In this document: piece by piece, positions 2,985 to 7,076 of the stretch
Layout: each line of letters begins with the position of its first letter
Numbering within the stretch: the first letter of the stretch is position 1
DNA from: Candidatus Multivoradales bacterium
Lineage (GTDB): Bacteria > Acidobacteriota > Thermoanaerobaculia > Multivoradales > JAHEKO01
Reading direction: 5' to 3'
Assembly: GCA_965223855.1 (NCBI GenBank)
Contig: CBDCXM010000008.1
Coordinates: 576,001 to 640,000 of the forward strand
Length of the DNA stretch: 64,000 bases
The notes under the pieces: model-generated
What the model saw: the letters and a program-made list of their open reading frames with translations, nothing else
What the model was told of the DNA's origin: nothing
Databases searched by the model: none
Position numbers and translations under genes: made by a program

Positions 2985-5000
2985 TCAGGAGGCGGCCAGC
3001 AGCTCGACGAAGGCCGCTTCGTCGAGTGTTTCGACGCCGAGTTCGCGCGCCTTCGTCGCCTTCGAGCCGGGGCTCTCACCGACGACCACGTAGTCGGTCT
3101 TGCCGCTCACCGAGCCGACGACCCGGCCGCCGAGACCTTCGATCGCCCGCTTGGCCTCGTCACGGGTGAAGCCGTCTAGGGCACCCGTCAGGACGAAGCG
3201 CTTGCCGTCGAGCGCTCCCGACACCGCTGCGGCGGGCTCCCCCTCCTCGAGGTGCAACCGCCCGTCGAGCAGCCGATCCAGAAGCTCGACGTTGTGCGGT
3301 TCGCCGAAAAAGCCACGAATCGCCTCCGCCATGATCGGCCCGACCCCTTCGACCGCCGTGAGTGCCTCGGCGTCCGCGGTTCGCAGCGCCGCGAGATTGC
3401 CGAAGTGCCGGGCCAGCTGCCTGGCGACCGTCGCTCCCACCTCGGGGATCCCGAGGCCGAAGAGGAAGCGATGAAGCGGTGACCGGGCTCCCCTGGCGAT
3501 CCCGGCCACCAGGGCGTTCGCCGACTTCTCCGCGAAGCCCTCGAACGGCAGCAGCTGCTCGCTCTCGAGATCGAACAGGTCCGGCAGCTGCCGCACCAGT
3601 CCCTCCGAAACCAGCAGTCGCGCCGTTTCCTCGCCCAGCCCCTCGATGTCGAGGGCGTTGCGCGAACCGAGATGCTGCAGCCGGCCGATGAGCTGCGCGG
3701 GGCAGTCGAGCCCGTTCGGGCAGACGGTGAAGGGCCCGCGCTCGACCAGCGGGGTGTCGCACGACGGGCAGCGCTCGGGCATGCGGAACCTGGGCGCCCT
3801 GCGGCGACCCTTCTCGGGGATCCGTTCAACCACCTGCGGGATCACGTCGCCCGCACGCTGGACGCGGATCCGGTCGCCCTTGCGGACGTCCTTGCGCTCG
3901 ACCTCCTCCCGGTTGTGGAGGGTCGCCCGGCTGACCGTCACCCCGGCGAGTTCCACCGGCCGCATCAGTGCCACCGGCGTGACGACGCCGGTGCGACCGA
4001 CGCTCGGCACGATGTCGAGCAGGCGGGTCACCTCCCGGCGCGGCGGGAACTTCATGGCGAACGCCCAGCGCGGGTGGTGGGAGGTCGTCCCCAGCACCTC
4101 GCGGTCGGGGAGTGAGTCGAGCTTGACGACCATGCCGTCGATCTCGAACTCGATCTCGTCTCTCACTGCCGAGAGCTCCTCGAAGTAGGCGATCACCTCC
4201 TCGACACTCTCGACCCGGCGCTTCCTGTCGGTGACCCGGAACCCCCACTCTTCGAGCGCCGTCAGCACGTCCCAGTGCGATTCGGCGTCGAACCGCTCCG
4301 CCACCAGGATGTCGTAGACGAAGATGTCCAAAGGGCGCTGGGCCGTGAGCGACGGATCGAGCTGCCGCAGCGCCCCGGCGGCCGCGTTGCGGGGATTGGC
4401 GAACGGGGCCTTCCCTTGCGCCAGCAGACTCGCGTTGTGCGCTTCGAACGGGCCGATCTCCATGATCACCTCGGCCCTGACGCTGACGAACCGCGGCACC
4501 TCGCGCCGCGAGCCGTCGAGGGTCAGCGGCACCGTGGCGATCGTCCGAGCGTTGGCGGTGATCCCCTCCCCCTCGCGCCCGTTACCTCGGGTCGCGGCGC
4601 GGACCAGCAGGCCGTCCTCGTAGACCAGCTCGAGCGAGGCGCCGTCGAACTTCGGCTCCAGCACGTAGGCGACCTCGGCGCCCTCGCCGAGCGCCTTGCG
4701 TACCCGCTCGTCGAAACGCACCACCGCCGCCTCGTCGGCGGCCGAGTCGAGGCTCAGCATCGGAGCCGCATGAGCCACCGTCTCGAACCCGTCCAGCAGC
4801 CCGCCACCGACCTTCTGCGTCGGCGAGTCGGAGCGCAGCAGCTCCGGAAAGCGCTCCTCGAGGTCGCTCAGCTCACGGAACAGGCGGTCGTACTCGGCGT
4901 CCGACACCTCCGGCGCGTCGCGCAGGTGGTAGAGGACGTTGTGGCGCTCGATGTCGGCCGCCAGGCGGGCGATCCGTCGGGCGGCCTCGTCACGCTCCAT
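2985..5000 (-). CDS. ligA: NAD-dependent DNA ligase
   Basis: 'VSDAEYDRL', 'PMLSL', 'EPKFDG' adenylation motif, 'EIDGMVVK', 'VGRTG', 'RAGDVIP', Cys4 zinc finger, HhH repeats and C-terminal BRCT. Start trimmed to ATG 5000. Confidence 0.97.
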
Positions 5001-5005
5001 GCGGT

Positions 5006-6031
5006 TCAGCTCGAGATGGTTTCCCAGTCGGTGTCGGGGGCGTCGGTGGCGATTGCCAAACCACCGTCGGCGCCGACGAACGCCGGCTCCTTGACGACCC
5101 GCACCTTGCCGCCGCCGATCTCCTGCAGCGCATCCTGGAGGGCGGCGCCGAGCCCCTTGAGCTGCGACGAGCCACCAGTGAGGATGACGTTGCCGCGAAC
5201 CTTCGGCTGGTACTCCGGCTCGACCCTCGAGATGAGATCGAACATCGCCTCGATCACCGGCGCGACGAGGCTGGCGCAGGCGGTCCGCATCTCGTCGGTG
5301 ATGTCGAACTTGGTCGGCTTGCCCTGCACCGGAGCGGTGACCATGATCTTGCCGCTCAGCTCGCCGACAAAGCCGCCCGACTCCTTCCAGCTCGTCGCCA
5401 TGTGGCGCGAGAAATTCGCCTCCGGATAGCGCGCTTCGATCAGCTGCTCGAGCTGGTCGTCGACCGAGTCGCCGGCCACGGTGAGAGTCTTCTGGTCCTC
5501 GTCGCGCGGATAGCGCCCGTTCATGACGCACAGGTCGGTAGTGCCGGCGCCGATGTCGATGATGAGGGCATGGAGGAGAGCGTCCAGCCCGTAGGCGACG
5601 GCGAACGGCTCGGAGACGATCATCAGCGAGTCGACGAGCCCTTCCATCGCAGAGCGGAGCTGCTGCTTGTTGACGCGCATCGCTTCCGCGGGCACGCCGA
5701 CCACGGCGCGTACGTCGAGCCCTTCCTTCCGCGCTTCCTCGACACCGGCGAGGTCGAGGAGGTGCTTCAAGAGCTCCCGAACCGCCTGCGCTTCGCGCTT
5801 CGACCCCTCCTTGATGAGGCCCCGTTCGAGCGGCCGGTGGAGGTCGAGCATGAGCCGATGCTCGAGCGCCGACTCACCGACGAGCACGTCTTCCTTGACG
5901 ACCCGTCGCGCCACCATGTCGAGCGGCCAGCCGACGTAACTGAGAACGAGATGTCTCGCTCCATTCGATGCCGAAACCGCGCTGCGCGAGGTTCCGAGGT
6001 CCACTCCGATGTTCAGCACTCCGTCACTCAT
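5006..6031 (-). CDS. Actin-like ATPase, MamK-like (MreB/Mbl superfamily)
   Basis: Phosphate-1 'IGVDLGTS', connect-1 '[10 protein letters not shown]', phosphate-2 'IDIGAGTTD', adenosine 'ILTGGSS'. Overall pattern is closer to MamK than to MreB as I recall them. Confidence 0.9.
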
Positions 6032-6041
6032 TCGACTGTTC

Positions 6042-7076
6042 TCAACTCCCCAGGGTGAGGTTGGGATTCAGGTTCAGGGCGTAGCTGCGCACACCTTCCA
6101 TCAGCGCTTCGGCGAGAAACTGGCGGTAGTCGGAACGCTCCAGCAGCTTCGCTTCCTCCGCGTTGGACAGACACCCTATCTCAGCCAGCACCGCCGGCAT
6201 CTCGGTACGAATCAGGACTCCGAACGGCGCCGATTTCACCCCCCGATTCTCCACCCAGGGGTTGATCGTCCGCAGCGACTTGAGCAACTCCCGCTGGATC
6301 GCCTGGGCCAGCTCCCGCGACTCCGAGCGCCGCACGCCGACATACACCCTCTCGAGCGCTTCGCGGAAGTCGCGCAGGGCGAGCTCGGTCCCGAGGTTTT
6401 CGCGCGCGGCGTGCCGCTGGAGATCCTCGTCGTCCGTCGGCCCGAGATAGAACGTCTCCACCGCCCGCACGTCGTTCTCGACGAACCAATTGATGTGGAT
6501 CGAGACGAAGATGTCCGCTCCCACCTCGTTCGCACGATCTCCGCGCGCTTCGAGCGAAAGCTCGCGATCCTCTTCGCGCGTCAGGAACACCTCGAACCCC
6601 TGTTTCTCGAGCAACTCGCGAAGGCGGAGCGCAATGTCGAGGGTGATCTCCTTCTCCTGCAGGCCGGTGGCGCTCGCCGTGCCGCGATGGATCCCACCAT
6701 GGCCCGGATCGAGCACTACACGGCGCACGGAGAACGGCAGCACACCACGGCCGAGCGCCGCCGAATCTCCATCGCCTACAGCGCTCTCCCGCGGCGGGGA
6801 GTTCGGCCTCGCCGCCGGGGGCGGCACCAGCAGGACGGTGCGCTCGCCGGCGGGGGCCGGATCCTGGGGTCGCAGGTAAGCGGTTGCCAGCACGTAGGAA
6901 GCCCCGGCCAGCACCATCAGGCCGATGCTCAGAGCGAAGGCACGGACGATGCGCTGGCGGCGCCGGCGGCGGGACTCGGAGGGCGCCGGTATCCCGTGCA
7001 TGGTGCGGTAGTTCTCCTCCACTGCCTGACGCAGCAGGCGGCGGCGCAACGCACGTTCCCTGGCCAGCGATTTCAT
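6042..7076 (-). CDS. Membrane-anchored N-acetylmuramoyl-L-alanine amidase (Amidase_3)
   Basis: 'VVLDPGHGG', 'EKEITL', 'LTR', 'FVSIHIN', 'MPAVLAEIGCLSN' zinc/catalytic motifs. Basic N-terminal tail followed by a single TM helix. Confidence 0.93.
   Translation of the reverse strand: MKSLARERALRRRLLRQAVEENYRTMHGIPAPSESRRRRRQRIVRAFALSIGLMVLAGASYVLATAYLRPQDPAPAGERTVLLVPPPAARPNSPPRESAVGDGDSAALGRGVLPFSVRRVVLDPGHGGIHRGTASATGLQEKEITLDIALRLRELLEKQGFEVFLTREEDRELSLEARGDRANEVGADIFVSIHINWFVENDVRAVETFYLGPTDDEDLQRHAARENLGTELALRDFREALERVYVGVRRSESRELAQAIQRELLKSLRTINPWVENRGVKSAPFGVLIRTEMPAVLAEIGCLSNAEEAKLLERSDYRQFLAEALMEGVRSYALNLNPNLTLGS

Follow-up and report, generated by a model that had tools for sequence, protein, structure and literature searches.

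A conserved gene pair encoding a MamK-like actin and a membrane-anchored peptidoglycan amidase in Thermoanaerobaculia and other bacteria

Organization of the locus and architecture of the two proteins

We analysed a stretch of 64,000 nucleotides (nt; hereafter the window) from a Candidatus Multivoradales bacterium of the class Thermoanaerobaculia (Acidobacteriota), covering positions 576,001 to 640,000 of contig CBDCXM010000008.1 in assembly GCA_965223855.1, in which a gene for a MamK-like actin directly follows a gene for a membrane-anchored N-acetylmuramoyl-L-alanine amidase. The assembly comprises 4.52 Mb in 9 contigs with a completeness of 92.5%, and the window lies on contig C8. Three co-oriented minus-strand genes, encoding the amidase, the actin, and the DNA ligase LigA, occupy a region with a G+C content of 68–70%. 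The amidase and actin genes are 10 nt apart (6032–6041), and the actin gene and ligA are 5 nt apart (5001–5005); the coordinates of the open reading frames (ORFs) agree with a preliminary description of this DNA, which had presented the actin as coupled to the amidase and ligA and had proposed a cytoskeletal module in which the actin filament positions the wall hydrolase. Comparative analysis indicated that the amidase and actin genes alone (5006–7076) constitute a conserved and probably translationally coupled unit, and it is rather likely that their products form an actin-amidase module for the spatial control of wall hydrolysis. The features of the locus are as follows.

6042–7076, minus strand: bitopic N-acetylmuramoyl-L-alanine amidase, 344 amino acids (aa); Amidase_3, 161.8 bits; stop codon at 6042–6044
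6942–7076, minus strand: cytoplasmic N-terminal tail of the amidase, residues 1–45, with a basic run at its end; assigned by positive-inside charge
6993–7058, minus strand: conserved tail helix, residues 7–28, the predicted actin-binding peptide; alignment and co-fold interface
6873–6941, minus strand: single hydrophobic membrane anchor, approximately residues 46–68; assigned from the sequence, part of the modelled helix 32–66
6723–6872, minus strand: variable Pro/Ala-rich periplasmic linker; poorly conserved and of varying length in the alignment
6087–6719, minus strand: Amidase_3 catalytic domain; Pfam envelope, Zn-binding and catalytic residues intact
6396–6428, minus strand: insert helix 'EDLQRHAAREN', residues 217–227; aligns with the insert of AmiA, AmiB, and AmiC
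5006–6031, minus strand: MamK-superfamily actin of the amidase-linked clade, 341 aa; family and PDB scores, fold, and clade support
5573–5626, minus strand: actin residues 136–153, one wall of the predicted tail groove; co-fold interface
5009–5053, minus strand: actin C-terminal helix, residues 327–341, the other wall of the predicted groove; co-fold interface
2985–5000, minus strand: LigA, NAD-dependent DNA ligase; NCBIfam LigA, 800.8 bits; a neighbour outside the conserved module

The amidase ORF spans 6042–7094, and alignment of the orthologues supports the ATG at 7076 as its likely start, in accordance with the start chosen previously. The protein belongs to the Amidase_3 family (PF01520), with the Zn ligands and the catalytic Glu in place; residues His126, Glu141, His194, and Glu299 are invariant in the 27 orthologues aligned from the class. 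Its best sequence matches in the PDB are AmiA (8c2o), AmiB (3ne8), and AmiC (4bin), which align over the whole domain including an inserted helix, with the conserved 'EN' of the insert aligning with that of AmiA, AmiB, and AmiC. Amidases that lack the insert (CwlD, LytH, CwlV, and AmiC2) align over the first ~95 residues of the domain only. This holds for the CwlD structure 7rag, and the CwlD family score is 129.8 bits against a cut-off of 221.55. Residues Ala223, Glu226, and Asn227 of the insert are invariant in the same 27 orthologues, and we take the insert helix to have the blocking role known from AmiB and AmiC. The structural model of the amidase, with a predicted local distance difference test score (pLDDT) of 82, comprises helices 2–26 and 32–66, a disordered stretch (67–118), the catalytic domain, and the insert helix (217–226), with the pLDDT falling below 50 over residues 67–85 and 92–106 of the linker. 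The top fold match of this model is Escherichia coli AmiA (TMt 0.81). Alignment and model thus both place the amidase with AmiA, AmiB, and AmiC by its blocking-helix insert. It nevertheless does not fit the pattern of a soluble periplasmic enzyme with a Tat (twin-arginine translocation) or Sec signal, to which AmiB and AmiC add an AMIN domain: a 45-residue tail and a 23-residue hydrophobic anchor precede the linker, no AMIN domain was matched in Pfam, and the NCBIfam scores for AmiA (98.7 bits; cut-off 400), AmiC (90.9; 700), and AmiB (79.1; 532) are all far below their cut-offs.

The tail is conserved beyond its basic character. Among the 27 class orthologues, Gly28 is invariant, and Val19 and Asn22 are at least 90% conserved. 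In divergent members of the class and in orthologues from other phyla, the tail shows a similar motif (type I-L-R-G-V-Y-E-E-N-L) ahead of basic residues and a single anchor. With the exception of L128, the cross-phylum orthologues with a complete 5' end (n = 31) contain a hydrophobic 19-residue window with a Kyte-Doolittle mean of 1.6–3.0. Reading the tail as a Tat signal was considered and rejected, as the twin arginine is not conserved and Lys-Lys or a single Arg often stands at this place in other phyla. The intact Zn/Glu site, the AmiC-like 'AAREN' helix, the single transmembrane stretch, and the basic N-terminal tail, all of which had been noted from the sequence before, are recovered in the alignment and the model.

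The actin is related to MamK rather than to MreB, as had been suspected. All three actin segments quoted in the preliminary description are present in its translation. Over its full length it scores 374.2 bits with the NCBIfam MamK family (NF040964), which is below the curated cut-off of 400; some other members of the amidase-linked clade exceed this cut-off (e.g., P0126, 425 bits). The BeeR family yields 217 bits (cut-off 530), and the MreB families yield 63.5 bits (PRK13927; cut-off 293), 50 bits (TIGR00904; cut-off 365.75), and 71 bits (Pfam MreB_Mbl). The same ranking was obtained with PDB sequences, in which MamK gives 247 bits over the full length (E = 3.5e-72), BeeR 146 bits, and MreB 38 bits. 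The monomer model is of moderate quality (pLDDT 71.6) and was used for fold ranking alone; its top matches are the MamK structures 5ljw and 5ljv (for 5ljv, TMq 0.81 and 38% identity), followed by BeeR and then by MreB. Neither an MreB score over the cut-off nor an mreC/mreD context was found for this gene. The disordered N-terminal extension of 30–50 residues that marks BeeR is likewise missing, with the conserved core beginning at residue 6. The nucleotide-binding residues Asp11, Gly13, Thr14, Glu141, Asp159, Gly161, Gly163, and Gly286 are kept in all 84 amidase-linked actins. The model and the alignment thus show a MamK-like fold with conserved ATPase residues, and because all nucleotide-binding residues are kept, the actin most likely polymerizes with ATP, by homology with MamK and BeeR.

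Public annotations label relatives of this actin 'rod shape-determining protein MreB', and its named close homologues stem from metagenome bins of Acidobacteriota and Thermoanaerobaculia. Clustering of a library at 50% identity unites the actins of the class in one cluster; none of the next full-length relatives exceeds 49% identity, and their named members come from Nitrospira, Verrucomicrobiota, and Gemmatimonadota bins. Six long proteins of 520–1232 aa (P0135, P0138, P0144, P0153, P0137, and P0173) carry a MamK-like actin domain at the C-terminus, preceded by N-terminal parts of ~200–900 residues that have no Pfam match.

Conservation, phylogeny, and genomic context of the gene pair

The genome sets compared here are samples and not censuses. 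An amidase gene lies directly upstream of the actin gene in all 83 loci whose actin is 46–68% identical to the one in the window, so the synteny on which the preliminary description had staked the pairing is conserved for this actin type. The 83 loci come from 80 genomes, with G065, G055, and G140 each taken twice, and they represent the class of the window, other Acidobacteriota, Nitrospirota, Thermodesulfobacteriota, Pseudomonadota, Rokubacteria, and Rhodothermota. An adjoining amidase was found at none of 51 actin copies with 36–44% identity, most of which are magnetosome-type MamK. Within the class, all 30 loci, that of the present genome among them, have the amidase directly upstream of the actin and on the same strand, with a contig end cutting the amidase in three; one unpublished genome (G104, locus L029) is included in the class loci, the alignments, and the trees. 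The pair is also kept in all 15 wider loci (~13 kb), which include three lineages outside the class. Among them are three genomes from a different family of the phylum and two that are more distant, with actins 47–50% identical. In the class sample, 97 of 151 genomes contain one actin copy each (52–68% identity).

A scan of one genome per species with a MamK-like alignment yielded 80 named loci, which split cleanly into 39 with and 41 without an amidase. The 39 loci with an Amidase_3 gene immediately upstream are exactly those with an actin 46.6–53.7% identical; their titles name Nitrospirota/Nitrospirae, Thermodesulfobacteriota/Desulfobulbaceae, Gamma-, Alpha-, and Betaproteobacteria, Rokuibacteriota, Rhodothermales, and a 'delta proteobacterium'. 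The actins of the 41 loci without an amidase are 36–44% identical, and the titles include Magnetospirillum, Magnetococcus, and Magnetococcales; a magnetosome cluster could not be demonstrated for every one of these 41. At least one neighbour in common with the Magnetospirillum locus was found in 23 of 40 amidase-less loci, compared with 2 of 39 amidase-linked loci. A MamK-like actin that is 42% identical and has no adjoining amidase (L113:8001–9005) is located on a contig titled Thermoplasmata archaeon. It pairs with the representative P0130 in the tree, and its presence on that contig could reflect a binning error or a transfer into archaea.

The genes of the pair are closely spaced. With start codons chosen by us, 19 of 27 pairs have an amidase stop that overlaps the actin start by 1, 4, or 8 nt, and in 7 of 27 the two are 0–10 nt apart, which suggests coupled translation. 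The tail is likewise tied to the actin. A profile built from the tail only matched 68 of the 151 class genomes at E <= 1e-4, all of them among the 97 actin-positive genomes, and the matches lie ~1 kb upstream of the actin where contigs allow. The 54 actin-negative genomes gave only two weak matches (E = 1.7e-3 and 4.0e-3). At the stricter threshold, the amidase tail with its conserved helix was thus found only in actin-bearing genomes. The majority of actin-positive genomes without a profile match fall into one genus, whose tail is a divergent variant.

An all-versus-all comparison of flanking ORFs revealed no third gene conserved across lineages. A gene encoding a receiver domain, a transmembrane helix, and a SPOR domain (REC-TM-SPOR) follows the actin in 15 of the 39 cross-phylum loci, comprising 12 of the 14 titled Nitrospirota/Nitrospirae and 3 without a phylum label. 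In the example at L099:8965–10182 (plus strand), a receiver domain is followed by a basic run with a membrane helix, then by a Pro/Gln linker and, at the C-terminus, by a SPOR domain; the REC-SPOR fusion is itself unusual. The available text of a published account states that SPOR domains bind amidase-processed peptidoglycan (PMC7822825), which ties the module to the product of the amidase in the wall.

In the 69-row tree, the amidase-linked actins form one clade with a support of 100 in the Shimodaira-Hasegawa-like approximate likelihood ratio test (SH-aLRT), and the magnetosome MamK clade has a support of 99. The amidase-linked clade contains 21 rows and two representatives of unknown context, and the backbone is unresolved; 26 rows had been removed by hand from this tree, and 30 representatives of the wider superfamily had been added. 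In the 65-row maximum-likelihood tree, thinned from 136 rows at 78% identity, one branch (SH-aLRT 99) separates 34 amidase-less from 30 amidase-linked rows. Both trees are quick searches with SH-aLRT support only. By its family and PDB scores the actin does not belong to canonical MreB, membership of which would have refuted the preliminary description, and in the 69-row tree it lies outside the magnetosome MamK clade, from which its own clade is separate. A nested arrangement, with the amidase-linked actins as a grade around MamK, was dropped because the 30 further representatives give a clade; the grade depended on rooting with the MreB of the present genome alone, one very long branch. With two separate clades on an unresolved backbone, the ancestral non-magnetosome role suggested in the preliminary description may or may not apply. 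BeeR was sought as an outgroup, and none of the 30 scanned representatives exceeded the BeeR cut-off. Sub-clades of the class actins follow the genome families. Within the magnetosome group, two MamK-type actin genes lie 1–2 kb apart in loci L078, L079, L082, L083, L086, L090, L093, L094, L101, and L135, which are titled Thermodesulfobacteriota, Deltaproteobacteria, or Gammaproteobacteria, and the copies fall into different magnetosome-group sub-clades.

The remainder of the genome provides a conventional background for the pair. Contig C9 encodes a canonical MreB (490.8 bits) with MreC (120.9 bits) after it, so that a separate MreB system is present outside the window, and FtsA (418 bits) is encoded on contig C3. 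The genome also encodes three SPOR-domain proteins and a second Amidase_3 protein (G000:C9:457196–458740; locus L061:2197–3738), which is 514 aa long and starts like a signal peptide, with ~260 residues of its N-terminal region lacking a Pfam match; this protein is the likelier conventional cell-separation amidase. The absence of magnetosome genes, previously noted for the 64 kb, extends to the 92.5%-complete genome for the four families searched: MamI had no match, and MamP (25.2 bits; cut-off 300), MamQ (104.9; 250), and MamO (111.7; 800) remained below their cut-offs. A further family tried as a magnetosome marker, NF040962, was discarded as unrelated to magnetosomes. Queries with the mamK neighbours of Magnetospirillum and Magnetococcales loci matched only scattered generic paralogues, and the actin gene was not found in or beside a magnetosome gene cluster. 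Since MreB-MreC, FtsA, and a second amidase are encoded elsewhere, the actin comes on top of a complete standard set; it does not replace MreB or FtsA, nor does it belong to a visible magnetosome island.

The inclusion of ligA in the module did not withstand comparison. The gene encodes a complete LigA, with 800.8 bits against an NCBIfam cut-off of 369 and with adenylation, OB, Zn-finger, HhH, and BRCT domains all present. It follows the actin in only 3 of 30 short loci, those of the present genome and two genomes of the same family, and it adjoins the pair in none of the 15 wider loci; it was therefore rejected as a module member. LigA is a bystander, and the amidase-actin pair is the real unit. 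A scan of 2000–8900 returned no promoter- or terminator-like sites and is uninformative at 69% G+C. Two ORFs of 221 aa flank the three genes (7125–7790 and 2266–2931, both minus strand); their third-position G+C is coding-like, and neither has a Pfam match. The ORF at 2266–2931 passed the coding-composition filter, and that at 7125–7790 has a weak relative in only one same-family genome among the wider loci compared. An ORF of 2015 aa with coding-like composition is located at 48392–54439 (minus strand).

Predicted tail-actin contact, proposed mechanism, and alternatives

Co-folding of the actin with tail residues 1–42, each supplied with a 27-row alignment, predicted a contact between the two proteins. 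The interface score ipSAE was 0.78 (0.75, 0.78, and 0.82 in the individual runs), compared with 0.00 for the best of three controls; at least 89% of the contacts agree between runs, and the pLDDT of the partner is at least 69. In a calibration of the tool, the mark was reached by 58 of 80 solved complexes and by 2 of 110 mismatched pairs, a guide that is rough when one's own alignments are used. This prediction supports the contact that the preliminary description had postulated. In the predicted interface, tail residues 7–28 lie against actin residues 122–126, 136–153, 172–174, and 327–341, which we assign, by homology with actin and MamK, to the walls of the hydrophobic groove that lies between the actin subdomains IA and IIA. 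The actin types differ at two positions in this groove or next to it. Position 126 is Arg or Lys in all 84 amidase-linked actins compared with Leu in 42 of 49 magnetosome-type actins, and position 136 is Leu in 80 of 84 amidase-linked actins compared with Ala or Ser in 48 of 49 magnetosome-type actins. The available text of PMC5173319 describes the IA/IIA groove as a hot spot for actin binders, which receives ParR on ParM and the C-terminal helix of arcadin-2 on crenactin. According to the same text, arcadin-2 depolymerizes crenactin by competing for the groove, because the groove holds the D-loop of the next subunit in the filament (PMC5173319).

These observations suggest a mechanism in which the amidase would be anchored in the inner membrane, with its catalytic domain in the periplasm and its conserved amphipathic N-terminal helix in the cytoplasm. 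The tail helix is predicted to dock in the IA/IIA hydrophobic groove of the actin, the site used by ParR and arcadin-2. Through this contact, the actin could set where, and possibly when, the amidase strips peptides from peptidoglycan, and the blocking-helix insert may impose a second, periplasmic activation step. The physiological role would be local wall remodelling or cell separation. The amidase could be carried along the filament or held only at a filament end, or the tail could itself regulate the actin. A bolder version, which we regard as quite unlikely, is a cytomotive 'hydrolase-first' cytoskeleton, in which the filament end would hold the amidase tail as ParM holds ParR. Filaments would then push or drag the amidase through the inner membrane, leaving tracks or patches of peptide-free glycan to be read by SPOR-domain proteins; the Nitrospirota-titled loci encode such a protein, fused to a receiver, in the operon. 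Magnetosome MamK would then be either a sister or a descendant, one in which organelle adaptors have replaced the wall-linked partner.

Several points weigh against an actin that positions the amidase. The evidence for binding is the confidence of a model, and the score may partly reflect a memory of the ParM:ParR and crenactin:arcadin-2 complexes. Actin residues 323–341, which include the C-terminal helix that forms half of the predicted groove, have a pLDDT below 50 in the monomer model, and the interface is no better conserved than the remaining actin (mean top-residue fraction 0.69 versus 0.68). In filaments, the groove is normally filled by the next subunit (PMC5173319), and the tail may bind monomers or filament ends only, an arrangement that fits regulation of the actin by the tail as well as positioning of the amidase by the actin. 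The distribution of the pair is patchy outside the class: it occurs in 5 of the ~362 remaining genomes of the phylum and, in the phylum to which the Nitrospirota-titled locus L099 belongs, in 3 of 151. In the large genus g8 of family f4 (e.g., L053), which has the divergent tail variant, no more than 3 of 21 genomes matched the tail profile, in each case at E > 1e-3 and at a distance from the pair, although the actins of this genus are still 60–64% identical to the one in the window. Signal peptidase may also remove the anchor and thereby uncouple tail and enzyme after export.

The direction of control may be reversed, with the tail serving the actin as a membrane tether or as a sequestering or depolymerizing peptide, similar to arcadin-2 or thymosin, and with a real cargo or task of the filament that is not encoded next to it. 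We consider this unlikely, although it is in keeping with the predicted binding site, the IA/IIA groove, which in crenactin holds the next subunit and for which, as the available text describes it, the arcadin-2 helix competes and so depolymerizes the filament (PMC5173319). It would also suit an actin that, as read from its sequence, has no evident membrane-binding segment of its own. However, a tether or sequestering peptide needs no fusion to an amidase that is conserved and catalytically intact in 83 of 83 loci; no other conserved neighbour appears as a possible cargo among the compared loci, and the one third gene that recurs encodes a SPOR domain, an indication of a link to peptidoglycan. 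It is distinctly improbable that the two proteins merely act in the same process, such as daughter-cell separation, and are co-expressed without contact, with the tail binding a divisome protein or a lipid. Proteins encoded in one operon frequently make no contact with one another, the co-fold is a prediction, and the interface residues are not specially conserved, yet the strict co-occurrence (68 tail-positive genomes, all actin-positive, and none of 54 actin-negative genomes at E <= 1e-4) speaks against such an arrangement. The gene overlaps, which suggest coupled synthesis, the co-fold score of 0.78 against 0.00, and the divergence of groove positions 126 (Arg/Lys versus Leu) and 136 (Leu versus Ala/Ser) between amidase-linked and magnetosome actins also argue for contact.

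Two further explanations concern the origin of the actin. That it is a leftover or divergent magnetosome part, or a second MreB for rod shape, is very improbable. MamK is its best-scoring named family and public annotations say MreB, but MamI, MamP, MamQ, and MamO are below cut-off in this genome, queries with mamK neighbours found generic paralogues only, and the actin clade is separate from the magnetosome MamKs. The MreB scores are far under their cut-offs, and the true MreB accompanies MreC on contig C9. Signal-anchored amidase endolysins exist, as do plasmid and phage actins, and together with the patchy cross-phylum distribution they would allow the pair to be a mobile or phage cassette, made of a signal-anchored endolysin and a phage or plasmid actin. 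This is hardly credible, since the actin had no match among 50,697 phage records (E <= 1e-10) or 72,556 plasmid records (E <= 1e-30). The pair is single-copy, with housekeeping neighbours that differ between lineages, and 97 of 151 genomes of one class contain the actin, in sub-clades that follow genome families. An actin-amidase module for the spatial control of wall hydrolysis thus remains the reading we favour.

Significance and comparison with known systems

Bacterial actins with known jobs are few, namely MreB, FtsA, ParM and other plasmid actins, and MamK. The present analysis delineates a further clade of chromosomal actins, one whose partner is fixed and identifiable, so that its function can be tested directly. 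The pair is small (~2.1 kb) and has a predicted binding helix of 22 residues, and it is suited to biochemistry and to imaging in a heterologous host. Known systems steer synthases or act via periplasmic activators; an actin bound directly to a peptidoglycan hydrolase, if true, would be a new way of placing wall cleavage. The novelty would lie in a peptidoglycan hydrolase as the predicted groove-binding partner of an actin-family protein. The pair also shows the closest relatives of MamK in a concrete setting outside magnetosomes, which bears on the origin of the magnetosome cytoskeleton, and it warns that a 'MamK family' annotation is unsafe as a marker of magnetotaxis. As far as our literature searches reach, the pairing is undescribed: no report of a MamK-like actin paired with an amidase was found in the open literature, with most subscription journals and supplements lying outside this reach, and a published study of MamK orthologues covers, in its available part, magnetotactic bacteria only.

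MamK (PDB 5LJV, 5LJW, and 5JYG) is the closest solved relative of the actin by sequence and fold, with the same size and no N-terminal extension. It differs in its partners, which are of the MamJ and MamY type in magnetosomes and an amidase here, in the systematic differences at groove positions 126 and 136, in its separate clade, and in the lack of magnetosome genes in the present genome. BeeR from Verrucomicrobiota (PDB 8R2N) is likewise a MamK-related actin of non-magnetotactic bacteria. The available text on BeeR describes three-stranded tubes and, as a hallmark, a disordered N-terminal extension of 30–50 residues, gives no known function or partner, and does not mention an amidase partner (PMC11929497); it shows that the characterization of MamK relatives outside magnetotactic bacteria has only just begun. 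That hallmark extension is absent from the actin described here, which scores 217 bits against the 530 of the BeeR cut-off. The amidase finds its best sequence and fold matches in AmiA, AmiB, and AmiC and shares their regulatory insert with the conserved Glu; it differs from them in its N-terminal cytoplasmic helix and anchor, with no AMIN domain detected and no conserved twin arginine.

The predicted contact resembles those of ParM-ParR (plasmid R1) and crenactin-arcadin-2, in which, according to the available text, a terminal helix of an adjacently encoded protein occupies the IA/IIA groove (PMC5173319), and the co-fold sets the amidase tail at the equivalent place. In contrast, the partners there are a DNA-binding adaptor and a soluble regulator and here a membrane-anchored hydrolase, and the helix is N-terminal here, has no sequence similarity to theirs, and is in contact by prediction. 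The MreB-RodZ and FtsA-FtsN systems similarly direct wall metabolism through a contact between an actin-family protein in the cytoplasm and the cytoplasmic end of a bitopic protein of the envelope. The amidase-actin-(REC-TM-SPOR) operon of the Nitrospirota-titled loci also recalls the loop of FtsN, SPOR domains, and amidases. Whereas synthases or regulators are steered in MreB-RodZ and FtsA-FtsN, the hydrolase itself would be the direct partner of the actin in the pair described here.

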